IMG/VR virus record: IMGVR_UViG_3300042863_001217
DNA: 64,000 nucleotides
DNA from: a virus
Lineage: Duplodnaviria; Heunggongvirae; Uroviricota; Caudoviricetes
Strand: one strand, 5' to 3'
The notes beneath the pieces were generated by a model. The model was not told the origin of the DNA, did not search any database, and worked only from the letters and a program-made list of their open reading frames with translations. Made by a program: the position numbers and the translations under genes. Position 1 is the first letter of the stretch, and every line of letters starts with the position of its first letter. This document shows positions 913 to 59,362 of the stretch, piece by piece.

Positions 913-2511
913 TTAGTTTCATCTCTCATAGTTAGTTCAAGTCTCTGGGAAAATTAGATTTTGGGAAAATTTCAGCTAGGGAAAACCCCACCAAACGCTT
1001 CACACCATTAGGTACCCACATGGTCGTTCCGACCCAAATCTAGGCCCTGCTTAGTTTCTGGCACACTACTAATACACATGGATGTGGTATCCCAATTTCT
1101 ATTCTGTACCAGTGATTGCTCTGGCCAACTCGCAGTTACTCTGATCCTCTTTAAATACCATTGGCGTGGACGTGTGACCATAGTAAGTCTTGGATAGTCG
1201 CTGGGGTTTTTGGCATTCTGCAGGGTCAGTCTTGGTCTAGGTCACTGATTAGTTATATGGCTCAGATCAAGTGTGTAAGACACATCACTCTGTGTACTCT
1301 CTTTTTTTTCGCTGGTCCTTAAGGTATTCTGGTTCTTTAAGTACTAAGACATTTTAAGTGTCTAAGTGTCTAAGTTAATCCTCTATGGTTTATCTGAGTA
1401 CTCTGAATGCTCTGATACCTGGAAGTCATTTCTTGTCGCGCGCGCTTCATGTCGATCGGGCCCTTGGAGCTTAGTCCCCCGGGGACCCAATTTTTTGGGA
1501 ACCGGCGACATTGAACAAGTCGCGATTCTGTCGGGCCTGTCTGGCTCTTGAGTACTCTTTGTTTTGGGGGTATACAATCGAGGGTCTGATCCGAGTCCTC
1601 TAAGTGGTTTGAGTTGTTTGGCGCCATGAATAGGCCCTGAAGCGCTGGCCCCGGGGCGAGATAGTTAACGCCCATAGTTGACAGTCGAAAATGCGCTATA
1701 GCTAATATAGTAAGTGAAGGTCCATACCTTAAAATCGGCGTTTAATCGCGAGACATGCGCAATGCGCTTTTTAAAACCATGAATGGATCATGAGTGCTTA
1801 GTGTCTTATATGCTCCATGTGTTATATTAGGCCTTTATATACTCTGAGGCTTATAGAGCTCTCATGTGTATATGCTATATGTGTATATGTTTATACCCTA
1901 TATGGTTAATTAGCTTTATTAGCTTTATTGCTCTATATGGCTTAATTAGCTTATTTGTCTTAATTGCGTACAGGCTAAGGCAGGTAAGCTCTGGCGTACT
2001 GTTGGTGCTCTAGGCTCTATAGAGCTCTGTAGCTCTCTGTCTCTCTACTGTTATTGGCTAATCAGCTGATACTGTTGGTGTGCTGGTGCTCTTGGTGTGT
2101 CTGTGCTCTCTGTAGTACCTATTAGCCTATTAGTCTATTGCTAATATTAGCTCTCTGGTGAATTATTAGTCCTCTGTAGATATTAGCGCTATATTTGCTT
2201 CCGGCGAGCGCTCTGGGAGCTTATTTGGACTTATTTAGCTCCTGGGAAGCTCCTGGTGACTATATTTAGCTCCCGGAGAGCTCCTGGGAAGCTTCCTGGG
2301 GCTTACTCTGGGGAAGCTCCTGGGGACTTACTCCTGGAAGCTTCCTGGGAGCGCTGCTGGCGCTAATCTTACCTCTGGCGTGAAATCCTACTTTATATGC
2401 TCCGGCGGGGCTTTTGTTTCAAAGTGATCTGGGTAGTCTGGGGTCCTTGCACGAAATGTTCGTAACTTTACTAAAAATAAGTGCTTAAATATTTTTTTAT
2501 TTGGATTATTA

Positions 2512-2548
2512 TGTGTATATTTACTCTATAATTAAAACACTAAACAAT
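2512..2548 (+). promoter_or_regulatory. Conserved promoter/leader module (GTGTATATTTACTCTATAATTAAAAC...) directly upstream of the ATG
   Basis: One of at least 7 near-identical copies in the plus cassette. Contains a TATAAT -10-like hexamer. The copy runs into the start codon ATGTCAAA. Confidence 0.45.
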
Positions 2549-3046
2549 ATGTCAAACATGATTTTTAACCAAGAGAAGATTAACCAAGTAGATTTTATTA
2601 ATGGCCGTACTGGTCAGTATAGAGCAGTAGTAAAAGTTAAAGCCGGTTTTATGACCGTAGTAGATGACTTAGGTATACAATGTAACTGGGCTTCAGGTGC
2701 CAGATGGAAGTCTGCCTTATCTGTATTCCAATCATTTAAACGTGGTGCTTTACAGACCATTGAATTTAAGGCTGATGGGTCTGACTCTTGGCTTACTGTC
2801 TTTGCCCGTAAAGGTAATAAGATCATGTTAATGGACACTGATATGTTCTTAACTATGACTGTCGGTGATATTAACCAAGACTGGTCTACCACTAACCTTT
2901 ATAGTCAAGCTAACTATAAGATGGCTGGAGCTAAGACATGGGCTGATAAAGCCTTTGTTAGTAATACTGTTACTATAGAGGAGTTAAATCCTATTATAGC
3001 TGGTGTTGACTTCTCTGAGTCTTTGGCTGCCTTAGCTGCTCTTTAA
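2549..3046 (+). CDS. Hypothetical early/accessory protein (start trimmed to MSNMIFNQ...)
   Basis: In-frame ATG immediately after the conserved leader module. The annotated upstream M would lie inside the promoter element. Confidence 0.5.
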   Translation: MSNMIFNQEKINQVDFINGRTGQYRAVVKVKAGFMTVVDDLGIQCNWASGARWKSALSVFQSFKRGALQTIEFKADGSDSWLTVFARKGNKIMLMDTDMFLTMTVGDINQDWSTTNLYSQANYKMAGAKTWADKAFVSNTVTIEELNPIIAGVDFSESLAALAAL

Positions 3047-3093
3047 GATGTTCGTAACTTTTATCAGTTACCTATGTTCCATGTCATTTAAAT

Positions 3094-3129
3094 TGTGTAT
3101 ATTTACTCTATAATTAAAACTTAAACAAT
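3094..3129 (+). promoter_or_regulatory. Conserved promoter/leader module
   Basis: TGTGTATATTTACTCTATAATTAAAACTTAAACAAT followed by ATGTCAAAA. Confidence 0.45.
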
Positions 3130-3525
3130 ATGTCAAAAATTAATCAATTCGATCGTCAGTCATTACGCGCACTTCGTGCAGATTTGGACTCAGCAATGGC
3201 TGCCATTGCAACTAAGTATGGTATTCAGTTAAATGCTGGTAATATCTCATTCACATCAGATACTGCTACTATTAAAGTGGCTGCTGGTATTATCAAGAAC
3301 GGTACAGCTGTTACTGCTGAAGCCAAAGCCTTTGATCAGTATAAGCGTATGGTAGGTCTGGGTCACTTAAGTGTTGGTGATAGCATTACTCTTCAAGGTA
3401 AAGCATATACCATCACTGGTTATAAGCCTCGCTCTAGTAAAGCGCCTGTATGTGTTGAACATCGTGGTCGTGGCTTTAAGGTGTCAGTTGACATGGTTAA
3501 GATGTACAACTCAGTGCCTGCCTAA
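3130..3525 (+). CDS. Hypothetical protein
   Basis: 131-aa ORF preceded by the conserved module and followed by a hairpin plus T-run. Confidence 0.5.
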   Translation: MSKINQFDRQSLRALRADLDSAMAAIATKYGIQLNAGNISFTSDTATIKVAAGIIKNGTAVTAEAKAFDQYKRMVGLGHLSVGDSITLQGKAYTITGYKPRSSKAPVCVEHRGRGFKVSVDMVKMYNSVPA

Positions 3526-3549
3526 CTGTTAATAACTTTTGTGAAAATA

Positions 3550-3582
3550 GGTTGACAATTGCTTTGGGTTGTCAACCTTTTC
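3550..3582 (+). terminator. Rho-independent terminator-like hairpin
   Basis: GGTTGACAA-ttgctttggg-TTGTCAACC followed by TTTT. Confidence 0.45.
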
Positions 3583-4010
3583 ACGTATATTTACATATGA
3601 ATTTAAAAATAAGACACATGAAGTAGATGCTTAAAAATCAAAAAAGAGGTAGCACCTCAACAAGGGTTCGCTTTTTTCTCGGAGCGCAGAGGGTAGACTC
3701 CGACCTACGTGACACCCCCTCCCTCGATAGTGGTCCAAATGTTCGTAACTTTTATGAAAATAAATGCGCAATTGTTTTGGGTTGTCATTTAAATCACGTA
3801 TATTTACTATGTAATTAAAAATAAGCTATATGACGTAGATGACTAAAAATTCAAAAAGGGATAAAATCCCAACAGGGGCGGTCCTTTCAAAAGAAGGAGG
3901 AAGAGTAGACTCCGACCTGCTTTATATTTTTTTTATAAAGGCTGTTCATAACTATGTTAATAACTTTATTGAATTATTTTTAGGGGCCTATGTCCGGTTA
4001 AAGAAATTTG

Positions 4011-4046
4011 TTGTATATTTACTGTATAATTAAAACACTAAAAGAT
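4011..4046 (+). promoter_or_regulatory. Conserved promoter/leader module
   Basis: TTGTATATTTACTGTATAATTAAAACACTAAAAGAT followed by ATGTCAAAC. Confidence 0.45.
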
Positions 4047-4364
4047 ATGTCAAACATCAAAGATCAAATTCAGTCATGGGTAGCTACCGAAGCTCAAGCT
4101 ACTATTAATAACTACTATACTAAGGCATTGCCTAGTTTGCGTGTTCCAGAGCTTACCGTTAAATTTGGACAGAAATATGCCCAAGTCTGGAATGGTACTA
4201 CTATATGGGCTTTTATTGCTTTAACTGATGAGGTTGCCAAAGCACAACGTGTAGGTGACTTATTGAAGCCTGCTTCGTGGAGGGCTCCAGCTAAACATAG
4301 TCGTGGTAACATTATTGAAGGTACCGCTGCTTATGGTCCTTATGGTCCAGAGTACATAAAATAA
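4047..4364 (+). CDS. Hypothetical protein (start trimmed to MSNIKDQ...)
   Basis: ATG directly after the leader module. 105 aa. Confidence 0.5.
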   Translation: MSNIKDQIQSWVATEAQATINNYYTKALPSLRVPELTVKFGQKYAQVWNGTTIWAFIALTDEVAKAQRVGDLLKPASWRAPAKHSRGNIIEGTAAYGPYGPEYIK

Positions 4365-4406
4365 TTTGAAAATACTTGTCTAAATATTTTTTTATGTCGA
4401 GTATTA

Positions 4407-4443
4407 TGTGTATATTAGCTTTATAATTAAAAACAAACAGATC
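4407..4443 (+). promoter_or_regulatory. Conserved promoter/leader module (variant)
   Basis: TGTGTATATTAGCTTTATAATTAAAAACAAACAGATC followed by ATG. Confidence 0.4.
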
Positions 4444-4821
4444 ATGCCTTATATTTCAAAAGAACAAGTTAAAGTAAAACGAGAAGCCCTTAAGAAAGCC
4501 TTACCTCAGTTTAAGATGTCTATTACTACTGATAACTATAGTGGTATTAAAGTGGCTATCATGAAAGGTCCAGTTGATTTCGGTATTGAGTATGCTCAGT
4601 TAAATGAGTATGCTGATTATCGCGAACCACGTTGGGACAGAGACACTGAACAATATGTGTCCAATCCAGCTATAGCTGACCTAATGGAGACTGTGATGCC
4701 TATCTTAAATGATGGTATGCGTGAAGGTCATGATGATAGTGATTATGGTCATATACCTGATTACTATACTTGGGTTCATATTGGTCAATGGGATAAAGCC
4801 TACGAGGTGGTTAATGCGTAA
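4444..4821 (+). CDS. Hypothetical protein (MPYISKEQ...)
   Basis: ORF beginning after the leader module. 125 aa. Confidence 0.5.
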   Translation: MPYISKEQVKVKREALKKALPQFKMSITTDNYSGIKVAIMKGPVDFGIEYAQLNEYADYREPRWDRDTEQYVSNPAIADLMETVMPILNDGMREGHDDSDYGHIPDYYTWVHIGQWDKAYEVVNA

Positions 4822-5155
4822 ACTTAAAAAGTCTGATGTTAATGCTGATACACTGATGAGGTGGTCTAATCGTAAGTTAGGTCCCTCTAGGTGCAAACGT
4901 ATATTGATTGTAGATCGTAAAAGCCCTGATTACGGTTGGTATGATTGGCATGGTACAGTCTACATCAATATACGCAATATTAGTTCTATGACTTCAGTAT
5001 ACAGAACTATGGCGCACGAATGGACTCATGCTCAACAAACATATGGTCGGTATAATGCCTATCATAAGAAGCATGGCTATAAAAACAATCCATATGAGGT
5101 TGCTGCCCGCCGGAGAGAAAGAACTTGCTTTAGTGAATTGTTCGTAACTTTATAG
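4814..5155 (+). CDS. Small HExxH protein, putative zinc metallopeptidase-like
   Basis: Start ATG overlaps the stop of the upstream gene (aATGcgTAA). Begins MRKLKKSD. Contains MAHEWTHAQQ (an HExxH motif). The C-terminal codons overlap the TTGTTCGTAACTTTATAG box. Confidence 0.35.
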   Translation: MRKLKKSDVNADTLMRWSNRKLGPSRCKRILIVDRKSPDYGWYDWHGTVYINIRNISSMTSVYRTMAHEWTHAQQTYGRYNAYHKKHGYKNNPYEVAARRRERTCFSELFVTL

Positions 5156-5194
5156 AAAATAATTCACAAAAAGCTTTGGGTTGTCGTTTATATC

Positions 5195-5230
5195 GTGTAT
5201 ATTTACTCTATAATTAAAACACTAACAGAT
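5195..5230 (+). promoter_or_regulatory. Conserved promoter/leader module
   Basis: CGTGTATATTTACTCTATAATTAAAACACTAACAGAT followed by ATGTCAAAA. Confidence 0.45.
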
Positions 5231-5533
5231 ATGTCAAAAGAAACAATTTTAGTCCACACTCAATTTTACGAAAACTACAACGTCGGTCCTGATGGATTCG
5301 GTGAAACTCCATCTTGGAAAGCCAAAGGTGGTCATACCTTCTCAATTGAGATGGATGCTGATCTTTTAATGTACTCTGACTCTAAGGCTATTTTTAGCAA
5401 AATGTTAGAGATGCATAACACTATTGCAGAGCGTTTTGAATATATAGAGTATGAAATTCAATGGTCTAAACCAAGTCTTCTTGGGTATCAGGCTGATTAT
5501 ATAGCAGCTAACGAGGCTTTACAAACAGCCTAA
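5231..5533 (+). CDS. Hypothetical protein (MSKETIL...)
   Basis: 100-aa ORF after the leader module. Confidence 0.5.
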   Translation: MSKETILVHTQFYENYNVGPDGFGETPSWKAKGGHTFSIEMDADLLMYSDSKAIFSKMLEMHNTIAERFEYIEYEIQWSKPSLLGYQADYIAANEALQTA

Positions 5534-5586
5534 TCTTTTTTTGAAACAATTCATAATTTAACCATATAAAAATAAAAACAAATCTT

Positions 5587-6738
5587 ATGTCAGCAATCGC
5601 AACATTATCATCAGCAGTTCTTGAAAATCGTAGAGCTGAAACACGTAACTCTCAGTCAATTCGTAAAACTGTATCAGTACGTGATATTAACCTTGTTAAC
5701 GATACAACTATCGAGTATCAAGGTAAACGTCTAGAGATTACATCAGACGCATTCAAGTCTCTTATGAAATTGATCGGTATGTCAGCAACCTTTGCTGCTA
5801 AGTTCGAATCTCTATTTAACCCTGAGACCAAAGCAAAATTCGTTAACCAAATGAAAAACGCTATGGCAGCTCAGTTGAATGAGATCACCATTATATTGTC
5901 TCCACAGACTAAGAAGGTAGTTGGTTTCTCTAAGAATGCAACAGACCTTATTTCTCACGAACGTTTCATTTCATTGGCTGATCAAATTATCGATCAACAT
6001 GGCTTTGAAGTTACCAATTGGGGTGTAGATGCTACTAAAGGTTCAGTTATTATCAATGCTTTTAATCCTAAGGCACAATTTGACCTTGCAGGTCTTGGTT
6101 TAGCCAATGAGGTTTTCACCGCTGGTGTTACTCTTAAGAATTCACCTTTCGGAGGTATACAAGTTATGCCTTATGTTAACAGAATGTTCTGTACGAATGG
6201 CTTAACTACAGGATTGGCTAGCGAATCTTATTCACTATCTAATTTAAATCCTGAATCGATGGAGAACTTTCACCAACATATGAGTCAATTGCGTAAGAAT
6301 GGATTTGTACCTACTAATTTTGCTGAAACTGTGAAATTGGCTACTCAAACTCCAGCTTCTCTATGGGAAATGGAACGTGCATATAGTTCAATCAAACCAA
6401 TGGTTGGCGCACAAGCTGACTCTTGGATCCCTTTGAATGATAACTACTCAGCGTATACTAAAGCAGGTATGATGCCAGAAGGTTTCTCAGCTGCTCAAAA
6501 GAAAAACGCACGTACTGATCAATCAATCTGGTCATTGGTAAATGGTATGACTCACGTCGCTACACATGCACCAGAACAATTAGCATTTAACATGACTGAT
6601 AGAGAATCTACAGACTTGATGGTTAAAGCTGGTGGTATCTTCGGTAAGCAATTTGATTTAGGTAACACAATTCGTTCACCTTTCAAAGCAGATGCTCACT
6701 TAGAGGCTGAAATGCAAGTAGGAGCTTTATTAAACTAA
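5587..6738 (+). CDS. Hypothetical protein, 383 aa
   Basis: Long ORF with no recognisable motif. Lacks the conserved leader module. Followed by a long structured 3' region and a terminator. Confidence 0.55.
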   Translation: MSAIATLSSAVLENRRAETRNSQSIRKTVSVRDINLVNDTTIEYQGKRLEITSDAFKSLMKLIGMSATFAAKFESLFNPETKAKFVNQMKNAMAAQLNEITIILSPQTKKVVGFSKNATDLISHERFISLADQIIDQHGFEVTNWGVDATKGSVIINAFNPKAQFDLAGLGLANEVFTAGVTLKNSPFGGIQVMPYVNRMFCTNGLTTGLASESYSLSNLNPESMENFHQHMSQLRKNGFVPTNFAETVKLATQTPASLWEMERAYSSIKPMVGAQADSWIPLNDNYSAYTKAGMMPEGFSAAQKKNARTDQSIWSLVNGMTHVATHAPEQLAFNMTDRESTDLMVKAGGIFGKQFDLGNTIRSPFKADAHLEAEMQVGALLN

Positions 6739-6883
6739 AAACTCGTAACCTCATCCAGATCACAGACAATCGAAACTGTAAAATGGAGCTGTTGAAGATG
6801 AGGTTACTATGAAAACTGGGAGTATGGTTAGAGCAGCGTAAATTCTAGATAGCATTAAGACTCACGACCTAAGTCCCTTCCAA

Positions 6884-6913
6884 GCCGGTACTACATGTAC
6901 CGGCTTTCTTTTT
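6884..6913 (+). terminator. Rho-independent terminator
   Basis: GCCGGTAC-tacat-GTACCGGC followed by TTTCTTTTT. Confidence 0.6.
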
Positions 6914-6994
6914 GCTCCAAAGGCTGCCATTGGTGAATTATTTTCGCTTTTTTATGAAAATAAACGCAAATAAGCTTTGGGTTGTCATTTATTA

Positions 6995-7031
6995 TGTGTA
7001 TATTTACCTTATAATTAAAACACTAACAGAT
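6995..7031 (+). promoter_or_regulatory. Conserved promoter/leader module
   Basis: TGTGTATATTTACCTTATAATTAAAACACTAACAGAT followed by ATG. Confidence 0.45.
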
Positions 7032-7226
7032 ATGAAAGTCACAGTCAACATTTTACCATTTTTAGGAGCCTTAGTTATGGGTTTCATTAGTTACTCTATT
7101 ATGCAAGGTACTGCTCAAGAAGTGGTTCATTTTGCGGGTGTATTAAACGAGATCTTCACATTGGTTATGGCCATGATGATGACCTTAGGTCTTTTGATAA
7201 TGTCAATCTCAAAGGCTGCCAAATAA
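7032..7226 (+). CDS. Small membrane protein (MKVTVNILPFLGALVMGF...)
   Basis: 64 aa with two hydrophobic segments. ATG sits directly after the leader module. Confidence 0.4.
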   Translation: MKVTVNILPFLGALVMGFISYSIMQGTAQEVVHFAGVLNEIFTLVMAMMMTLGLLIMSISKAAK

Positions 7227-7273
7227 ATTGTTCGTAACTTTTACCTAATTTATTTTGGGTTGTCAAATAAAAG

Positions 7274-7310
7274 TTGTATATTAGCTCTATAATTAAAAGT
7301 CAAACACTAT
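7274..7310 (+). promoter_or_regulatory. Conserved promoter/leader module (variant)
   Basis: TTGTATATTAGCTCTATAATTAAAAGTCAAACACTAT followed by ATGTCAAAA. Confidence 0.4.
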
Positions 7311-8453
7311 ATGTCAAAATCATCTTACACAATTCACAAATTAGAGGCTGTTCCTAATAAGAAGCCTAATTTCAATCTTAAAAATATTGCTGATTCCGAG
7401 GACCAAGTCCTGATCACAGCAGAAAATCCTAAGTATGCCTATGTAGCAGAAAATCAGGGTCGTATTATTAACATCAACGGAGTTATGGCTTCAGGTGTTT
7501 TAAAGATGACCTCATCAGCTGACTACTATGATGCTTATGGTCTTAAACAAAAAACCAAGGTTGAGGTAGCCGCACCTAAAGCAGCTCCACTTAAAATCTC
7601 ATTAACCAAGTTAGATGACCTTAATTTCTCTGACGAGTTATTTAACCCTCTAACTACTGGTTTGGCAATAGACCAATTCTTATCTAATGACGGTGGCTTT
7701 ATGCCAGGTTCAAACATCATGGCTGCAGGTGCACCGGGTGTAGGTAAGACTACAGTTCTTTTAGAAACCTTATACGCAGTACAAAAGCAAGATCCTACCA
7801 AGCGTGTGCTGTTCATCTCAGCTGAAATGAACCAATTGGACATGGCTAGATACCTAAAAAGATTCCCACATTGGGGTCAGTTACCAATCTTATTCTTAAG
7901 TGACTATGTTGACCAAGATCCTCAAGCCGTAATAGAGCAAACATTGCAACAAGGTTGGGACATAGTCTTAACAGATAGTTACACCGAGGTGAATGACACA
8001 GTTAAAGAAGCTTGTAACATGACCAGAGGTAAAACTGAAAAGTGGTTCTTGGACATGATGATTGCCAATAACCAAGGTAAGAACCAAACCAAGAAGTATA
8101 CTACCTTCATCACCATTTTACAGTTATCTAAGGGTGGTACATTCGTCGGGTCCAACAAACTAAAACACATGACCACAGCCATGCTAGAATTAAACTGGAA
8201 AGGCAATGAGAATTCAGCTGAGCGTTATATGGAATTCAGTAAGAACCGTTTAGGCCAAGTAGGTCATAAGTTATTCTTTGACTTTACAGACGGAGTTAGT
8301 TTTGACACCAAGAGATACAAGCGAGATCTACTTAACTTGGAATTAATTGAGGATGAGAGAGCTAAGCTGACATCAGAAGAGGATAGCTTTGACCGTCTTT
8401 TCGGTGCTATACCTAATGAAAGTGACTCCACCCCGGCGGTAGAAGTAAACTAA
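7311..8453 (+). CDS. RecA-fold P-loop ATPase, DnaB-like helicase domain
   Basis: Walker A motif GAPGVGKTT. Downstream VLFISAEM resembles DnaB motif H1a (SLEM). ILQLSKGG resembles DnaB motif H3. Confidence 0.5.
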   Translation: MSKSSYTIHKLEAVPNKKPNFNLKNIADSEDQVLITAENPKYAYVAENQGRIININGVMASGVLKMTSSADYYDAYGLKQKTKVEVAAPKAAPLKISLTKLDDLNFSDELFNPLTTGLAIDQFLSNDGGFMPGSNIMAAGAPGVGKTTVLLETLYAVQKQDPTKRVLFISAEMNQLDMARYLKRFPHWGQLPILFLSDYVDQDPQAVIEQTLQQGWDIVLTDSYTEVNDTVKEACNMTRGKTEKWFLDMMIANNQGKNQTKKYTTFITILQLSKGGTFVGSNKLKHMTTAMLELNWKGNENSAERYMEFSKNRLGQVGHKLFFDFTDGVSFDTKRYKRDLLNLELIEDERAKLTSEEDSFDRLFGAIPNESDSTPAVEVN

Positions 8454-9117
8454 TTGCTCATTGGGCTCAGTGGAGCTCTTCAAATAATATCCGACCCGGC
8501 GGAGACATAGCACCGGGGCTTTTAATTATATCATGGGAGGCTTTGACACCTCCGTGCCCACACCAGACCTGACTAGTTTGGTGTTGTGGGATCCAGGGAG
8601 CTGACAGGGCTGTGGGAGCCTCTGGAGTGTGTATGTGTTAGCGTTCGCGTTTGACTCATCTCCTGGCGCACCGCAACACCAATGAACGATACTAATAAGC
8701 GCTATATATCTGATCCCCTGGGGACCTTACTGGATACGAGTTCGTTTTAAATTGTGGGGTTTGGTATTCTTACCACTTTTTACCACTTTATACCACTAAA
8801 TACCATAACGGGGCTTAAAACCTTAAAAGGGCTTAAAAGAGACGCTAAGGCGCTCCATTGGTGGTGGGACCATTACCATTTTTGTCTATTGGTATATCTG
8901 GTCTTTATTGCCCATACTATATAAGGGATTGCTAGAAGGATTACTATGTATATCATATTGGTTTATCTGGTATCTGGGTTAGGGTTTGAGTTTATCCTTA
9001 TCCCTTTGGAATTATCTTATATCTATCTAGTCTATTAGGATATGGTGTTTATTGTGTTGGTAGCGCGCGTTTTGGTTATGCTGGTTTTGATGGAAATAAT
9101 TGGGTTGGGTTGCGTGC

Positions 9118-9147
9118 AAAAAAAAGACCTCTTAATTAGAGGCCTTC
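9118..9147 (-). terminator. Rho-independent terminator (minus strand)
   Basis: Minus strand reads AGGCCTCTAATTAAGAGGTCT followed by TTTTTTTT, just downstream of the stop at 9172. Confidence 0.55.
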
Positions 9148-9171
9148 TGTGTGTGTATTGTGTGTGTTTGA

Positions 9172-9878: not shown

Positions 9879-10565
9879 TTATTTATCTAACATTGCATTC
9901 TGCAATTCTTTAAGTTTTGCTTCAGCTTCTTTTTGTCCTTTTTCTGTTTTTTTATAGACCTCTTTTTTTTCTTTAACATTATCACAACCAATCTTATAAT
10001 CACTACAAGAATATTGTGCTCCTGTTAAAGAATGTGCTGCTTCACTAAATGCTGCCCCAGCATTTTTGTACTCAGTAATGTAATATGAAAGCCAAGCTTT
10101 AGTTTCTGCAGAAAAATCTTTGCTTATTTTTTGCATTTTATCTTCAAGTTTTTTTGCATTAACTTCATTTTCATCTTCGATAGCTTTGTCTCTTTTAGCA
10201 AGACCGTCCATCATTCTTTCTTCTTCAGCTGGACAATTGTTTTTCATATAAGACCATCTAAAAGATTGTCTACTATTTATGAGCGTGTTATATTTGTTTA
10301 TAAATTTAGCAAGTTGACCATATTCCTCTTTGGCATCAGCTCCACCTTGTAGTTCTGCTAATTCACCTTCCATTTCAACTTTCTGTGCATCCAAGTCTGA
10401 TAATTGAAGCTCAGCTTCATCTTCATCCATGTCTCCTTTTTCTACAGCAGACTGAATTTCTTCCATTCTATCATCAAGTTCAGTTAGATCATTTTGAAGA
10501 TCTTTGATTTTTTTGTCATTACTAGCCTCACCAATAAATTGTTCAAATAGTTTAATATGTTTCAT
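9879..10565 (-). CDS. Leader-family protein (MKHIKLFEQFIGE...), coiled-coil rich
   Basis: Conserved N-terminal decapeptide. Acidic coiled-coil body. Confidence 0.6.
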   Translation of the reverse strand: MKHIKLFEQFIGEASNDKKIKDLQNDLTELDDRMEEIQSAVEKGDMDEDEAELQLSDLDAQKVEMEGELAELQGGADAKEEYGQLAKFINKYNTLINSRQSFRWSYMKNNCPAEEERMMDGLAKRDKAIEDENEVNAKKLEDKMQKISKDFSAETKAWLSYYITEYKNAGAAFSEAAHSLTGAQYSCSDYKIGCDNVKEKKEVYKKTEKGQKEAEAKLKELQNAMLDK

Positions 10566-13101: not shown

Positions 13102-13122
13102 TTGATTGTCTGTATTATTTTA

Positions 13123-21029: not shown

Positions 21030-24000
21030 TTATTTCGGTGTACAATTTGAGTTAGTAAATATTGCAGTTACTGTAAATCCAACTCCATCGTAGTCTGATT
21101 GATTACCAGTAACATATACATATTTATTATCCCATAATTGAGCAGCGACATTATTGTATATGCTTTCTGCAAATTTAGTATTACTTGCATGATCCCAAAC
21201 TAATAATACTGATGCGGTTCCAGTTGCATCTACACCCCATAGAGTGTATCTAACTTCTTGTGTATTATCACTTACACCGTATGAAGACTCAATTCCAGTT
21301 AAAATCATACCTTCTAAAGCAAATGTATATGGTATTAATACAAATGATTTTTGAAGTGATTGATTTGTAATTTTTTCATCTCTTGGAGTTGCACAAATTG
21401 ATACATGTTCATAACATGATCCTATGCCCGCTTCTCCAGGTTGTCCAGGTTGTCCATTGATACCTGATGTACCATTTGTTCCTGAAGAACCATTTGTACC
21501 ATTTGTTCCTGAAGAACCATTAGTTCCAGATGTACCATTTGTACCATGTGTTCCTGAAGTTCCATTAGTACCACTTGTACCATCTCTACCAGAAGAACCG
21601 CTTGTACCATCTTTACCTGAAGTTCCATTAGTACCACTCGTACCATTTAAACCAGAAGTACCATTAGTTCCTGATGTTCCATTAGTTCCATTAATTCCTG
21701 AAGAACCATTAGTTCCAGATGTACCATTAGTACCACTTGTACCATTAGTTCCAGATGTACCATTAATACCGCTTGAACCGCTTGTACCATCTCTACCTGA
21801 AGAACCATTTGTACCAGAAGTACCATTAGTTCCTGAAGAACCATTAGTTCCTGATGTTCCATTAGTTCCAGATGTACCATTAGTACCATGTGTTCCTGAA
21901 GTTCCATTAGTTCCAGAAGTTCCATTAGTACCGCTTGTACCATTAGAACCATTTATTCCTGAAGATCCATTAGTTCCTGAAGTTCCACGCTCACCGTTTG
22001 TACCACTAGTTCCATTTGTACCTGAAGAACCATTAGTTCCTGAAGTACCATTTGCGCCAGATGTACCATTAGTTCCTGAAGAACCATTAGTACCACTTGT
22101 ACCGTTAGTTCCATGTGTTCCTGAAGAACCATTAGTTCCTGATGTTCCATTAGTTCCTGATGTTCCATTAGTACCACTTGTTCCATTAGTTCCATTAGTT
22201 CCTGAAGTTCCACGCTCTCCGTTTGTACCACTAGTACCATTTAAACCAGATGTTCCATTAGTTCCTGAAGAACCATTAGTACCACTAGTACCATTAATTC
22301 CAGAAGAACCACTAGTACCATTAATTCCAGAAGAACCATTTGCACCTGAAGTTCCATTTATACCATCTCTACCTGAAGAACCATCTGTACCTGAAGTTCC
22401 ACGCTCTCCGTTTATACCATCAGTTCCACTTGTTCCATTTATACCACTAGTACCATTAGTTCCAGAAGTTCCGTTAGTTCCTGAAGTTCCGTTAGTTCCA
22501 TGTGTACCTGAAGTACCATTAGTTCCAGAAGTTCCGTTAGTTCCACTTGTTCCATTTGCACCTGAAGTTCCGTTAGTACCATCTCTACCTGAAGAACCAT
22601 TTGTACCACTAGTACCATTAGTTCCTGAAGTTCCGTTAGTTCCACTTGTTCCATTTGCACCTGAAGTTCCGTTAGTTCCATGTGTACCTGAAGTTCCGTT
22701 AGTTCCAGAAGAACCATTAGTTCCTGAAGATCCATTTGTTCCAGAAGAACCATTAGTACCTGATGTACCACGTTCTCCATTTATACCACTTGAACCATCA
22801 GTTCCAGAAGTTCCATCTAATCCATTACGACCATCAATACCACTAGTTCCATTAGTTCCAGAAGTTCCATTTATACCGCTTGTGCCATTTGAACCATTAG
22901 TACCACTAGTTCCATTTGTTCCAGAAGAACCATTAGTTCCATTTGTTCCAGAAGAACCATTAGTACCAGATGTACCATTAGTTCCACTAGTTCCATTTGT
23001 TCCAGAAGAACCATTAGTTCCTGAAGTTCCATTTGAACCATTAGTACCACTCGTACCGTTTGTTCCAGAAGAACCATTAGTTCCTGATGTACCATTAGCA
23101 CCGCTTGTGCCATTTGAACCATTTAAACCCGATGTACCATTAGTTCCAGAAGAACCATTAGTTCCAGAAGTTCCAGTATCACCTTTAGCGCCTGAAGTTC
23201 CATTAGTACCAGATGTACCATTAGTTCCAGAAGAACCATTAGTTCCTGAAGAACCATCAGCACCATCAAATCCAGATGTACCATTATTACCATTAGTTCC
23301 TGAAGTTCCGTTAGTTCCTGAAGTTCCGTGTGATCCATCCATTCCACTAGTACCATTAATACCAGAAGATCCATCATTACCTCTTGAACCTGAAGTTCCA
23401 TCAGTTCCATTTGAACCTGAAGTTCCATTAGTTCCTGAAGTTCCATTAGTTCCTGAAGAACCATTAGTTCCTGAAGTTCCATCAGATCCATTTGTACCAT
23501 TTGTTCCATTTGTTCCAGAAGATCCATCAGAACCATTAGTTCCATTAGTTCCATTTGTTCCAGAAGAACCATTAGTTCCATTTGTTCCAGAAGAACCGCT
23601 TGTTCCAGGATTTCCAGTTACACCGCTTGTTCCATTTGTTCCATTTGTTCCAGAAGAACCATTTGTTCCAGAAGAACCATTAGTTCCTGAAGAACCATTT
23701 GTTCCTGAAGAACCATTAGATCCATTTGTTCCAGATGTACCATTAGAACCCGCAGGTCCTTCAGTTGCACCTAAAGATGAAACTATATGTGAATAATTTG
23801 AAACGCCTTCTGTATAAAATTTAATAGTTCTATTTTGATTATCATCGTTAATAGCATAAATTTGAACTAATACTTTATCAGTAGGACTTATATAATGTTG
23901 TTCTAAAAATAAGTCTTGATATACATCCACTGGAATTGCAGTAGAAGTGTCCCATCCTATTAATGTAGGTGTAGTTGTTCCCCACACAGCAATTGGTATT

Positions 24001-24914
24001 CCACCTGCATCTGTACGAGTAACCTTAACATATACTTGAATAGCATGTGAATCTACTTCTTTAGTGAAGTGCATTAAAAATGATTGAATACCAGCAGATA
24101 CTACTGCAACACCTAATCCAACTGGAGTTATAAATTGAGTAACTAATACATCTGATTGCAACGGAGTTAAATCAGTAGTTACTATTTGTTGTACACTAGA
24201 TACTGGGATTGGTGAAATTTCATTAAGATCATTTGCACCGCCACCATTATTAACTACAGTAACTGATTCATTCATATAGAATATTTGACCAGTGCTATAA
24301 CCTGCTTCTCCTTGTAAACCATTAACTCCACTTGAACCTGAAGTTCCATCAATTCCTGATGTACCATTAGTACCACTTGTTCCATCAATTCCAGAAGTAC
24401 CATTAGTACCATCTAAACCGTTTAAACTAACTTCTACCCATGGATCATTACCATTAGTTGAAGATGGTGTATATAATTGTGGTAAAAATGTTGGAGGTCC
24501 ACCTATAACATTTGTGTATATTTGTGTACTATTAGGTTTTAAAAGACCTGCGCGAACCCATTGTGGTAACGCTTGCCATTCAGTATCACCTAAAACACCA
24601 TTATTGCCCCAATATCCTTTAGGTATTAAGACATAAAATTTATTTTCTTCAATGACATAAACTAGCATACCAACTGATCGAATACCCGTTGTATATCCAC
24701 CATCGTTTGAAACTGTAAAACCAATATGTGTAACTGGTGCAGGTGCTTCACCCCAAATAGGTAAGGCATTTCTTTCTTCAATTGTAAATACCTTTTGATA
24801 CCCACCCTTTACATGTTGTGCATGTACAATTCCTTCATAAGGACTTAATGATGAACTTGGCGAAATAAAATTACCAAAGGCGTATTGTGTTGAAACTGGT
24901 CTAGTAAATCCCAT
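21030..24914 (-). CDS. Collagen-like repeat protein (virion fibre candidate), 1294 aa
   Basis: Several hundred residues of uninterrupted G-X-Y triplets (GTNGTSGTNGSSG...), flanked by non-collagenous N- and C-terminal domains. Confidence 0.7.
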   Translation of the reverse strand: MGFTRPVSTQYAFGNFISPSSSLSPYEGIVHAQHVKGGYQKVFTIEERNALPIWGEAPAPVTHIGFTVSNDGGYTTGIRSVGMLVYVIEENKFYVLIPKGYWGNNGVLGDTEWQALPQWVRAGLLKPNSTQIYTNVIGGPPTFLPQLYTPSSTNGNDPWVEVSLNGLDGTNGTSGIDGTSGTNGTSGIDGTSGSSGVNGLQGEAGYSTGQIFYMNESVTVVNNGGGANDLNEISPIPVSSVQQIVTTDLTPLQSDVLVTQFITPVGLGVAVVSAGIQSFLMHFTKEVDSHAIQVYVKVTRTDAGGIPIAVWGTTTPTLIGWDTSTAIPVDVYQDLFLEQHYISPTDKVLVQIYAINDDNQNRTIKFYTEGVSNYSHIVSSLGATEGPAGSNGTSGTNGSNGSSGTNGSSGTNGSSGTNGSSGTNGTNGTSGVTGNPGTSGSSGTNGTNGSSGTNGTNGTNGSDGSSGTNGTNGTNGSDGTSGTNGSSGTNGTSGTNGTSGSNGTDGTSGSRGNDGSSGINGTSGMDGSHGTSGTNGTSGTNGNNGTSGFDGADGSSGTNGSSGTNGTSGTNGTSGAKGDTGTSGTNGSSGTNGTSGLNGSNGTSGANGTSGTNGSSGTNGTSGTNGSNGTSGTNGSSGTNGTSGTNGTSGTNGSSGTNGTNGSSGTNGTSGTNGSNGTSGINGTSGTNGTSGIDGRNGLDGTSGTDGSSGINGERGTSGTNGSSGTNGSSGTNGSSGTNGTSGTHGTNGTSGANGTSGTNGTSGTNGTSGTNGSSGRDGTNGTSGANGTSGTNGTSGTNGTSGTHGTNGTSGTNGTSGTNGTSGINGTSGTDGINGERGTSGTDGSSGRDGINGTSGANGSSGINGTSGSSGINGTSGTNGSSGTNGTSGLNGTSGTNGERGTSGTNGTNGTSGTNGTSGTNGTSGTNGSSGTHGTNGTSGTNGSSGTNGTSGANGTSGTNGSSGTNGTSGTNGERGTSGTNGSSGINGSNGTSGTNGTSGTNGTSGTHGTNGTSGTNGTSGTNGSSGTNGTSGTNGSSGRDGTSGSSGINGTSGTNGTSGTNGTSGTNGSSGINGTNGTSGTNGTSGLNGTSGTNGTSGKDGTSGSSGRDGTSGTNGTSGTHGTNGTSGTNGSSGTNGTNGSSGTNGTSGINGQPGQPGEAGIGSCYEHVSICATPRDEKITNQSLQKSFVLIPYTFALEGMILTGIESSYGVSDNTQEVRYTLWGVDATGTASVLLVWDHASNTKFAESIYNNVAAQLWDNKYVYVTGNQSDYDGVGFTVTAIFTNSNCTPK
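21434..23760 (-). repeat. Tandem 9-bp-unit DNA repeats encoding collagen G-X-Y triplets
   Basis: Low-complexity periodic DNA. Produces artefactual ORFs on the opposite strand. Confidence 0.7.
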
Positions 24915-36740: not shown

Positions 36741-36879
36741 AGTTTTAAATTTAATTGGTTAATATTGTTAATGTACACGAAAAAAACGACATAAAAAACT
36801 ATTTATCGTTTATTTTCAATTTATTCATACTATTTATATGAAAGCTTCTAATTTTGTTTTAATTATAGAGCTAATATAC

Positions 36880-36920: not shown

Positions 36921-36939
36921 CATAAAAGTTGCGAACAAT

Positions 36940-54306: not shown

Positions 54307-54321
54307 GACTTTGTGTTTTAT

Positions 54322-55083
54322 TTATATATTAAATTTTTCTTTAAACATTTTTCTTCTTCTCATGAATTCTTTTGAATAGAATTCTAAATCTTGTTGTGTT
54401 AATGAGAAACATTGTGGTAAATTATCTTCTTCGTTTGCGATCCAAATTTCTGCTCCATCTGCCTTAATACCAGTTCTATCCCAATATGCTATAAAATAAG
54501 CACCTGTTTGAATGAAATAATCTTGAATCCAATGTTCTTGTTTTGGTTTACGTGAATTTTTGTAGTCAATGATCTTAATCAAATTATCTGTCATTTCAGA
54601 TATGTTATCTACTGTACCTGCCCAACCTCCAGCTTTTGTAGTCCATAAGAATGTTTCAGCTTCTAATACTTTTTTAATTCTGTCAAAATAATCTGAACTA
54701 TTAAAGTAGAATTTGTAAAAGAATTTCCAAGCTTCTGCTAAGTACAAAGCTCCGTTCTCATCATCACTGAATTGGTTGCACTCATCATCTTCTTTTGCCA
54801 AATCTTTAAGAATAATAAGCCTTTCGTTAGCTTCGCCAGAAGTGCCCTTATATAGTTCTATAAGTCTGTGCATAATAGTACCTCTATTCATAGATAGCGT
54901 TGAAATTCGATCAGCTTCTGCTTCACCGACTTTTTGACGCCATTTGTCCAATCCAGATTGATCTTTAGTTTGACCTAAAACTGTGGTAACAGATGGTAAT
55001 TTAGCTATTACTGTATCGCCTTCGGTAACTTGATAAAATCTAAGACCATCTTCATGAACTCGTACTATTTTATACTGATCCAA
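54322..55083 (-). CDS. PD-(D/E)XK family nuclease-like protein (YqaJ/lambda-exonuclease type)
   Basis: ...TVDNISE...IIDYKNSRK... D/E-x-K arrangement. Moderate confidence. Confidence 0.4.
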   Translation of the reverse strand: MDQYKIVRVHEDGLRFYQVTEGDTVIAKLPSVTTVLGQTKDQSGLDKWRQKVGEAEADRISTLSMNRGTIMHRLIELYKGTSGEANERLIILKDLAKEDDECNQFSDDENGALYLAEAWKFFYKFYFNSSDYFDRIKKVLEAETFLWTTKAGGWAGTVDNISEMTDNLIKIIDYKNSRKPKQEHWIQDYFIQTGAYFIAYWDRTGIKADGAEIWIANEEDNLPQCFSLTQQDLEFYSKEFMRRRKMFKEKFNI

Positions 55084-58275: not shown

Positions 58276-58535
58276 TATTTTTCGTTAATGATTACTTGTC
58301 CTTCCATTACTCCAAAACCAGATTTCTCAGTAAAGTAATAAGTAGATGCTTCAGTGGTATCTTTTTTAGTCAAGATCCAAAGACTTGCATCTTTACCTTT
58401 CCAGGTAACATTTACTACTCGTGTTCCAGCTTCTAGGTTAATAACCTCAGTTCCACCAAATGATCTAGCTCTTTGATTTTCTGTACAAGATGCTAGTGAA
58501 ATAGCTGCGATAGCTATAATGAATAATTTTTTCAT
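58275..58535 (-). CDS. Small lipoprotein (lipobox LASC)
   Basis: MKKLFIIAIAAISLASC... Preceded (minus strand, 58545-58575) by a copy of the GTATATTTACCCTATAA module. Confidence 0.45.
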   Translation of the reverse strand: MKKLFIIAIAAISLASCTENQRARSFGGTEVINLEAGTRVVNVTWKGKDASLWILTKKDTTEASTYYFTEKSGFGVMEGQVIINEK

Positions 58536-58785
58536 TTTTAATTGTTTTTAATTGTTATAGGGTAAATATACATATAATTTTCGACATAAAAAAATATATT
58601 TTAATAAAGTTACGAACAATCTTTCTTTTTATGTTTGTCTTTACGAAAATACTTCTTTTTATTACGATAAGGCGCAGGCACTTTAAGAGCATCAAACCAT
58701 TCCTGTAATGTTATGTTAATTTTTTCTAATTTGATTTTTTTAGTCTCTTTCATGATCTACTGTTTTAATTATAAGGCTAATATAC

Positions 58786-58817: not shown

Positions 58818-58891
58818 AACTATTTTTAAAAAAGTTACGAACAATTGCATATTAAACCAAAAAGACCCATCGAATGATGAGTCTTCTTTAG

Positions 58892-58965: not shown

Positions 58966-59188
58966 GCGATACTTATATATCGTATTAATTTTAGCGATGT
59001 GAGAAACTAGCCTATTCCATTTAAAACTCATATCACTTCGGGATCTAACCGCTCTAATCTCAAGTTCAGTATCAGAACCATTCTGGTATGTGTTGATTAG
59101 TAACCTTTATCGTATATATGGTGTCCACCACTTTAGCATCAGAGTGAATAAGTCTTAATGCCTACTCGAACAGTTTTTTAAGGTTTAA

Positions 59189-59362
59189 TTAGGCGTTGTT
59201 TTTCTCAGATACTTCTGTTCTAACAACTTGCGCTAAGTTTTTGATCTCTTGCATAGCTTTACGAACTCTTGTTCCAGCTGCTTTGTTTCCGTTTTCAAAG
59301 AATTTTGTTGCGTCAGCTTGAACTGCGTTTAATACTTCTTGAATTTGTGCTAATGTTTCCAT
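59189..59362 (-). CDS. Histone H1-like (Hc1-family) small DNA-binding protein, 57 aa
   Basis: Not in the ORF track because it is under 60 aa. Translation METLAQIQEVLNAVQADATKFFENGNKAAGTRVRKAMQEIKNLAQVVRTEVSEKNNA. The GNKAAGTRVRKA core resembles the bacterial Hc1 family. Confidence 0.45.
   Translation of the reverse strand: METLAQIQEVLNAVQADATKFFENGNKAAGTRVRKAMQEIKNLAQVVRTEVSEKNNA

Follow-up and report, generated by a model that had tools for sequence, protein, structure and literature searches.

In the 64,000-nucleotide stretch of viral DNA analyzed here (the window; IMG/VR record IMGVR_UViG_3300042863_001217, Caudoviricetes), the 13-mer TGTTCGTAACTTT, referred to below as the box, recurs upstream of a conserved, predicted promoter core. 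Seven exact copies were found, at positions 2457, 3049, 3740, 5139 and 7229 on the plus strand and at 58606 and 58831 on the minus strand, compared with 0.00 expected from 100 dinucleotide-preserving shuffles. One copy with a single mismatch, TGTTCGCAACTTT, is located at 36925 (-), and three boxes with two mismatches, all of them upstream of promoter cores, are located at 3527 and 3955 (TGTTAATAACTTT) and at 3943 (TGTTCATAACTAT), giving 11 boxes in total. The recurrence reported by an earlier sequence-only reading of this DNA, which had proposed such a shuffle count, is therefore real, and its coordinates and strands were correct to within 3 nucleotides (nt), including the one-mismatch copy. 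What that reading had overlooked is the promoter core located 43 to 54 nt downstream of each copy.

All eight exact or one-mismatch copies are followed by a 24-nt core, GTATATTTACTCTATAATTAAAAC or its TATATTAGC variant, with the pattern GTATATTWRC-NN-TATAATTAAAA. The core starts 47-48 or 58 nt after the start of the box, and about 10 A-rich bases separate its end from an ATG. Since cores follow every box, the repeated unit is a cassette of ~90 nt, of which the 13-mer forms the upstream end. The window harbors 12 cores: 8 with an exact or one-mismatch box, 2 with a variant box (3585 and 4013) and 2 without a box (4410 and 6998).

On the plus strand, the first cassette (2454-2548) carries an exact box at 2457-2469, whose centre lies 54 nt before the first T (T1) of TATATT; this centre-to-T1 distance is used throughout. 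Its core, GTATATTTACTCTATAATTAAAAC, at 2515-2538 precedes an ATG at 2549. The exact box at 3049-3061 starts 2 nt past a TAA (3044-3046) and is followed, at a distance of 44, by an exact consensus core (3097-3120) and an ATG at 3130. A variant box, TGTTAATAACTTT (3527-3539), lies 54 nt before a variant core, GTATATTTACATATGAATTTAAAA (3585-3608), and the exact box at 3740-3752 lies at the same distance of 54 from a core with three mismatches (3798-3821). Two abutting variant boxes, TGTTCATAACTAT and TGTTAATAACTTT (3943-3967), have their centres 66 and 54 nt before a one-mismatch core at 4013-4036 (ATG at 4047), and the next core, at 4410-4433 (ATG at 4444), belongs to a box-less cassette. The exact box at 5139-5151, at a distance of 54 from an exact consensus core (5197-5220; ATG at 5231), is read through by an open reading frame (ORF) at 4709-5155. 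Upstream of the core at 6998-7021 (ATG at 7032) the box is degenerate or lost (TTATTTTCGCTTTTTT). The last plus-strand box, an exact one at 7229-7241, starts 2 nt past a TAA (7224-7226) and is placed at a distance of 43 from a TATATTAGC-type core (7276-7299), whose ATG at 7311 opens a DnaB/RecA-like ATPase gene.

On the minus strand, the one-mismatch box (36925-36937) starts 2 nt past the stop of an ORF of 1192 amino acids (aa) and has a distance of 54 to the core at 36856-36879, before which a hairpin with a T-run is found (AAGCCCAAA..TTTGGGCTT). The exact box at 58606-58618 contains the TAA stop of a 47-aa ORF (58610-58753); its distance is 43 to a variant core at 58548-58571, followed by the ATG at 58535 of a lipoprotein-like gene. 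The exact box at 58831-58843, between a hairpin at 58888-58859, which follows a tRNA-Ala gene, and another at 58817-58792, has a distance of 54 to a TATATTAGC-type core at 58762-58785 (ATG at 58753).

The variant core at 3585 and the core at 3798 are upstream of two small RNA (sRNA)-like sequences at 3606-3739 and 3818-3945 (+), each of which has its own cassette promoter and ends at the next box. Homologues were found in a related locus, L059, at 7463-7600 and 8508-8645. The pair has in common ATGAC-TAGATGA, a small hairpin, an AAGGAGG tract and GTAGACTCCGACCT, and the hairpin shows compensatory changes (GGGAT..ATCCC versus GAGGT..ACCTC). The sRNA-like sequences had no match in Rfam, and the 63- and 64-aa ORFs overlapping them look spurious.

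As seen in a box-anchored alignment, there is no information upstream of position -3, and the box thus forms the sharp 5' edge of the cassette. It is followed, in order, by an A-rich tract (GAAAATAA), an optional GC hairpin with a T-run, resembling a terminator or insulator, another T-run that carries TGTCA and corresponds to the -33 region, TATATTTA or TATATTAG, TATAAT, an A-rich leader and the ATG. The sequence-only reading had described the box as usually followed by TTATGAAAATAA; an (A/G)AAAATA(A/G) tract was indeed observed after five of the eight copies, those at 3049, 7229 and 58606 being without it. A single mismatch separates each of TATATTTA and TATATTAG from TAHHTTTG, the -7 element of Bacteroidota, which ends 4-5 nt ahead of the start site (Baez et al. 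2019, PMC6847099). Perfect TATATTTG cores occur in relatives, and a similar box-less cassette is present in Chryseobacterium phage MA9V-2. Moreover, a Shine-Dalgarno-like motif was found at only 2 of the 78 ORF starts in the window, the leaders being A-rich, and sigma-70-type promoters were not enriched (17 found versus 17.9 expected in the window), for which reason a sigma-70 promoter reading was rejected. Together with the sigma homologues described below, these features suggest that the core is probably a Bacteroidota-type promoter and that the host belongs to the Bacteroidota, likely to the Flavobacteriia. Transcription is predicted to start near the A of TATAAT, which would leave a leader of ~20 nt without a Shine-Dalgarno motif, and the cassette promoters would be used by the host polymerase.

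The box had also been described as lying always just past a stop codon. This holds for five of the eight copies; the other three follow non-coding DNA (2457 and 3740) or tRNA-Ala and a terminator-like hairpin (58831). The overlap with a coding end near 5155 and the TAA stop that the box provides to a minus-strand ORF of about 50 aa were both correctly noted. Across 91 distinct contexts, 37 have the stop codon of an upstream ORF of at least 60 codons ending 1-3 nt ahead of the box, the TAA often providing the conserved AA, and in 6 the stop is the TAA inside the box; in the remaining contexts, an ORF ends a few bases past the box, or a tRNA, non-coding sequence or hairpin precedes it. The apparent stop-codon rule is due to ORFs being packed, by genome compaction, against the sharp 5' border of the cassette. 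Because its reading frame varies, and because it also occurs in non-coding DNA and behind a tRNA, the box is a signal at the nucleic-acid level and not a protein motif, as the sequence-only reading had proposed.

Terminator-like hairpins are found on either side of the box. In the 58.8-kb region (-), the order is tRNA-Ala, terminator-like hairpin (58888-58859), box (58843-58831), hairpin with T-run (58817-58792), core and ATG. Little transcription of this box is likely, given its place past one terminator-like hairpin and ahead of the next predicted start site. In two related loci (L007 and L022), a terminator hairpin directly precedes the box. A hairpin with a T-run is present in 33% of the cassettes with a box (e.g., those at 36.9 and 58.8 kb) and in 18% of those without, a comparison of limited value given that the box-less set includes other phage families. 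Hairpins being at least as frequent with the box, the box does not replace a terminator.

Spacing and orientation of the box among relatives

Searches of IMG/VR with box-gap-core patterns returned 38 to 72 loci, depending on the pattern, on related contigs of up to 165 kb (IMGVR_UViG_3300042472_000628) and 256 kb (3300012346_000380). The window shares 92-97% identity with pieces of the 165-kb contig and of a 45-kb contig, and it represents about 40% of a ~165-kb genome. Across ~170 related loci, every box but one is followed by the cassette core, and the sole unlinked box is a chance match in a giant-virus metagenome-assembled genome (MAG).

Among 67 distinct forward modules from these loci, the distance was 33 nt in 3, 42-44 nt in 16, 52-54 nt in 45 and 64 nt in 3, and the window distances (54, 44, 54, 54, 43, 43, 54 and 54 nt) fall into the two major classes. 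The intervening spacers form 16 clusters at 70% identity, and several unrelated ones are equal in length. The phasing was strong, with a Rayleigh R of 0.92 at a period of 10-10.5 bp and p of about 1e-6 for the 67 modules and 16 unrelated spacer clusters. The same distance classes recur in loci fetched by the core alone. The box is therefore placed at integral helical turns from the core promoter (33, 43, 53 and 64, in steps of about 10.4 bp); if T1 of TATATT is set at -12, its centre falls near -45, -55, -65 and -76.

We also observed the reverse complement of the box, AAAGTTACGAACA, followed by the core at 11 loci, which reduce to 7 distinct sequences (7 of 74 distinct modules). Six of these seven come from three separate gene contexts (L002; L029, L092 and L093; L089 and L097), and the seventh is a chance match in a giant-virus MAG. 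In the six real cases, the ~15-bp dyad alone is flipped, the flanks keep the cassette orientation, and the box centres lie at 33, 43 or 53, the same classes as for forward boxes. As read from the sequence, the site thus combines a partial dyad symmetry with either orientation. The earlier statement that the box is oriented with transcription holds for all eight copies in the window; in relatives, about 10% of the copies are inverted.

Inverted copies bear on whether the box acts as RNA. A function in the RNA of the upstream gene, at its 3' end, for processing, termination or antitermination, or stability, would agree with the stop codons that end 1-3 nt ahead of the box (37 of 91 contexts) and with the frequent position of the box upstream of a hairpin and T-run. 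However, an RNA signal would not tolerate inversion, and both orientations occur at one and the same centre. The box also keeps helical phase with the promoter that follows it, is preceded by tRNA and non-coding sequence as well as by ORFs, and may fall between a terminator-like hairpin and the next start site, a segment likely to yield little RNA. Its pairing potential is limited to GUU/AAC, and Rfam, searched with the gathering threshold and in E-value mode, returned tRNA only and no family match for the box. The antiterminator and processing roles that had been suggested are consequently disfavored, a nut/put-type antiterminator or processing site was rejected on the inverted copies, the box past a terminator and the lack of an Rfam match, and we give an RNA-level function hardly any probability.

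A stoperator-like roadblock or insulator, in which a phage protein on the box would halt polymerase arriving from the upstream gene, was weighed on the same data. The repressor of mycobacteriophage L5 acts in this way at its 13-bp stoperators, and the box resembles these in being 13 bp long, largely asymmetric, located at gene ends and co-oriented in all eight window copies and in about 90% of those in relatives. Yet the remaining copies, about 10%, are inverted, and the phased coupling of every copy to a promoter would be superfluous for a roadblock. Box cassettes carry hairpins at least as often as box-less ones, so the box is no terminator substitute, and some boxes are already downstream of a terminator. 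Neither a repressor nor a sign of lysogeny was found, and there were no matches in bacterial genomes. Such a roadblock is quite unlikely.

The box itself extends to an imperfect dyad of ~17 bp, AAW-TGTT-CGT-AAC-TTTt, around a central G, in which GTT pairs with AAC and A(-2) with T(+14). In the alignment of relatives, AAW directly precedes the box and T is preferred directly after it. The variants TGTTAATAACTTT, TGTTAACAACTTT, TGTTCGCAACTTT and TGTTCATAACTAT keep the arms (TGTT/AAC) and change the centre, for which CGT and AAT occur; the symmetry is only partial, with the GTT-N3-AAC arms and the A/T flanks conserved and the centre varying. The best upstream match to the box among cassettes fetched by their core was bimodal, with either 0-3 mismatches or chance level, which indicates an optional module that roughly half of the strict-core cassettes contain. 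In loci L114, L118, L122 and L138, which belong to other phage families with the same core, two or three direct TGTTAAA repeats ~11 nt apart replace the box; these may be a different upstream element with the same logic.

The cassette is restricted to phages. A search of 185,579 bacterial and archaeal genomes for the box with the core gave 10 matches, none with the cassette, compared with a chance estimate of about 8. Set against 72 viral loci, these chance-level matches in unrelated taxa indicate that the element belongs to uncultured large phages and not to hosts or prophages, and a prophage or host regulon was rejected. Megablast of the 2-9 kb region against GenBank phages gave no match, and tblastn of the window proteins against phages gave remote matches to huge uncultured phages only. 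The exact ATPase protein of the window was present in 33 blocks of public assemblies; all copies of its gene on the contigs retrieved were identical, so that natural variants were not available for comparison. The phage is present in JGI samples such as 3300042353, 3300042375 and 3300044522. When the literature was searched for the motif strings, it yielded primers and unrelated matches only, and the motif was not described there.

A candidate operator and its rivals

We favor, as the probable though by no means certain explanation, that the box is a protein-binding site, an operator or activator site, that acts on a set of phage promoters in a manner dependent on the face of the helix. This reading is based on the coupling of the box to promoters, its phasing over unrelated spacers, its independence of orientation, the conserved arms with a free centre, its probably untranscribed position in some cassettes and its restriction to phages. 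The regulator-binding role listed by the sequence-only reading is therefore the one favored by the evidence, with the box as a distal promoter element and not as a signal of gene ends.

In this mechanism, a sequence-specific and probably dimeric DNA-binding protein, more likely encoded by the phage than by the host, would occupy the box. Placed on one face of the helix near -45, -55, -65 or -76, it would touch the promoter-bound host RNA polymerase and could co-regulate about 10-20 promoters per genome. The geometry, with one upstream site between -45 and -76 and cores one mismatch off the consensus, is that of class-I-type activation; a late shut-off would be equally compatible.

Several observations weigh against such a binding site. 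About half of the strict-core cassettes are box-less and otherwise alike, so that promoter identity does not depend on the box. Most operator sets are less rigid than a 13-mer without any variation, and since the asymmetric positions T1, C5-G6-T7 and T11-13 are likewise conserved, recognition may not be simply dyadic. The 11-nt step between distance classes coincides in part with the presence or absence of the sub-module tATGAAAATAA, so that the phasing could partly arise from gain or loss of this sub-module and not from selection for a helical face. The start site from which the positions are counted is a prediction, and most related loci were fetched by patterns that include the exact box, which biases the conservation estimates. 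Finally, no helix-turn-helix-type regulator was detected by Pfam in 59 ORFs of the window (~40% of the genome) or in 10 conserved ORFs adjacent to cassettes in relatives, with 25 of 43 families listed. The sole DNA-binding protein among the matches listed was an Hc1 histone-like protein. A gene of this type, encoding a histone H1-like protein of ~55 aa, is located at 59198-59362 (-); in relatives, the homologue matches PF07432 (E = 3e-22) and shares 73% identity with the window copy.

A different protein partner would be a phage sigma factor of the extracytoplasmic function (ECF) type, for which the box would be the -35 element and the cassette a tandem promoter. Relatives encode a 201-aa ECF-like sigma with Pfam Sigma70_r2 and r4_2 domains (L006 at 1535-2137 and 16 other loci, outside the window), and at 10 of these 17 loci a box cassette immediately precedes the sigma gene. 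Its nearest phage homologues are in crAss-like phages, Lak (Prevotella) phages and huge uncultured phages. In addition, CGTAACTTT (GTAAC-TTT) has what we take to be a resemblance to ECF -35 consensus sequences. ECF promoters combine an AAC element at -35 with a -10 element at 16-17 nt. Against this reading, no -10 partner is conserved at any fixed offset from the box, with 0.0-0.4 bits at offsets 26-30; the AAAATAA tract lies just 4-8 nt from the box and is absent from the 33 and 43 classes; and inverted boxes occur. Without a -10 partner, an ECF -35 function was rejected and is highly improbable. The sigma genes do provide a phylogenetic footprint in favor of the binding site: among 12 distinct sequences preceding orthologues with 60-100% aa identity, 10 retain the box (9 exact and 1 variant), and the spacer has been replaced, switching between the 43 and 53 classes.

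The sharp edge of the cassette raises a further alternative, in which the box is kept as a homology patch or recognition site for cassette recombination and regulation is secondary. The cassettes, composite units of promoter and stem-loop in a region of small ORFs, are similar in this to the promoter-early stem-loop (PeSL) cassettes known from T4-type phages (Arbiol et al. 2010, PMC2839356; Comeau et al. 2014, PMC4122927). The box is a sharp 5' boundary of similarity, with no information further upstream. Locus L059 contains a 1,045-bp tandem duplication, whose unit comprises a cassette, gene A and an sRNA-like sequence. The near-identical relative L004 has two extra genes, at 6713-7625 and 1187-2254, relative to window positions 58756-58763 and 54310-54330: one is a 304-aa ORF inserted directly past a cassette leader, and the other, putatively M42-peptidase-like by eye, is an ORF inserted at an ATATAT microhomology. 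The two indels are not bounded by boxes, however. Homology exchange would, moreover, conserve the cassette evenly, whereas the spacer beside the invariant box varies freely, and recombination explains neither the 10.4-bp phasing nor inverted boxes at the same centre. A box maintained mainly for recombination is thus unlikely, and PeSL-like recombination is possible as an additional property of the cassettes. The recombination-promoting cassette end that had been suggested earlier accordingly finds some, weak, backing in the single tandem duplication in L059 and none in the two indels. Still more specific, and very unlikely, would be a dedicated machinery, integron- or PeSL-like, that recognizes the box as a defined end sequence to insert, excise or exchange promoter-plus-gene cassettes in large lytic phages, the box perhaps doubling as a phase-locked operator. 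If true, this would explain a letter-perfect 13-mer across phages whose proteins are 60% identical, as well as the exact 5' border.

Returning to the favored binding site, the cassettes would represent a compact cis-regulatory code composed of a host-type -7 promoter, a leader without Shine-Dalgarno motif and, in some cassettes, the invariant box upstream in a fixed phase of the helix. This code concerns an abundant uncultured family of phages of ~165-250 kb whose hosts are probably of the Flavobacteria type. To our knowledge, little is known about upstream activation of Bacteroidota-type promoters or about how phages of these bacteria time their genes. The 17-bp dyad of the box could be used as bait (AAATGTTCGTAACTTTT), and its about 10-20 copies per genome would offer a direct handle on the regulator. 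The cassette could also be a strong, portable promoter part for Bacteroidota, and the box is a practical marker for this phage family in metagenomes.

Other features of the window

At least 13 otherwise different minus-strand proteins share the N-terminal peptide MK(H/Y/K)xKL(F/Y)E(E/Q)F(I/V)NE, with gene starts at 10565, 11344, 11903, 12224, 12817, 13101, 30133, 34968, 35508, 35844, 36119, 44450 and 45521. We take this peptide to resemble MKTYQEFIAE, the sequence that targets internal proteins to the T4 capsid and that the prohead protease cleaves off, an analogy that suggests that these proteins may be a large set packaged into the capsid and injected. Also on the minus strand, a 1294-aa tail-fibre gene with collagen-like repeats spans 21030-24914, and the 790-aa ORF on the opposite strand (21424-23796, +) is most likely an artefact of these repeats.

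Two nearly ORF-free stretches, 913-2456 and 8454-9171, flank the early module of the plus strand and have a GC content of about 0.38-0.39, versus 0.30 elsewhere. Tandem repeats with units such as CTGGGAAGCTTCCTGGGGACTTACT are found in these ORF-poor stretches at 1864-1967 and 2228-2350. The two stretches might represent an origin, genome ends or long non-coding RNAs. Shortly upstream of minus-strand genes, at 13122, 18218, 36143 and 41299, we observed GATATATAAT, and its variant GATATATAAG at 58972 before tRNA-Ala. This motif could be a second, perhaps late, promoter type; by count it is not enriched in the window (18 found versus 18.6 expected, one mismatch allowed).

Comparison with known systems

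As a mechanism, the closest analogues of the box appear to be upstream activator or operator sites. CRP class I sites are centred at -61.5, -72.5 and -82.5, and the late promoters controlled by Ogr/Delta in P2/P4 carry a TGT-N12-ACA dyad near -55. Like these, the box is a single, partly dyad site upstream of -35, at integral helical turns and in either orientation, common to a set of phage promoters with slightly imperfect cores. It differs in being unusually invariant, with strong asymmetric positions; activation here is putative, and the polymerase would be of the Bacteroidota type.

The L5 stoperators and the P1 C1 operators are similar in another way, being largely asymmetric sites of 13-17 bp in about 10-30 dispersed copies, often at gene ends and mostly co-oriented. 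Here, in contrast, the sites are coupled to promoters at a phased distance and some are inverted, and no evidence of a repressor or of a temperate lifestyle was found. An L5-type stoperator, which is single in orientation and independent of promoters, was rejected as a match, with 7 of 74 modules inverted and all of them promoter-coupled. Integron attC sites have RYYYAAC and GTTRRRY core sites in an imperfect palindrome of 57-141 bp; GTTCGTA and TCGTAAC in the box are off this core consensus, there is no long palindrome around the box, and attC was rejected as well. The SOS (LexA-like) operators of Bacteroidota are GGA-N5-TCC or CTAA-N5-TTAG palindromes (PMC8565304), which differ from the box and were likewise rejected.

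As an object, the cassette is most closely analogous to the T4-type PeSL cassettes (PMC2839356, PMC4122927). Each is a short intergenic composite that recurs in the genome and combines an AT-rich tract with a terminator-like stem-loop and a strong early promoter of the host type, the latter being predicted in our case, and each precedes small ORFs where a large phage genome is plastic. The two are not homologous in sequence, PeSLs having a sigma-70 consensus and a GGGG..CCCC stem, so that the cassette is an analogue and not a homologue; its promoter would be of the Bacteroidota -33/-7 type and not sigma-70. The stem-loop is optional here, in about one third of the cassettes, and exchange between cassettes, which in PeSLs gives rise to indels, replacements or mini-circles, is putative; one cassette unit is duplicated in L059, and the two L004 indels are not flanked by cassettes. 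The invariant phased distal box has no counterpart in PeSLs. Overall, the box is real, statistically solid and experimentally tractable. It represents a promoter element rather than a novel type of system, and what is new relative to PeSLs is an invariant, phased distal box in the context of a Bacteroidota-type promoter.

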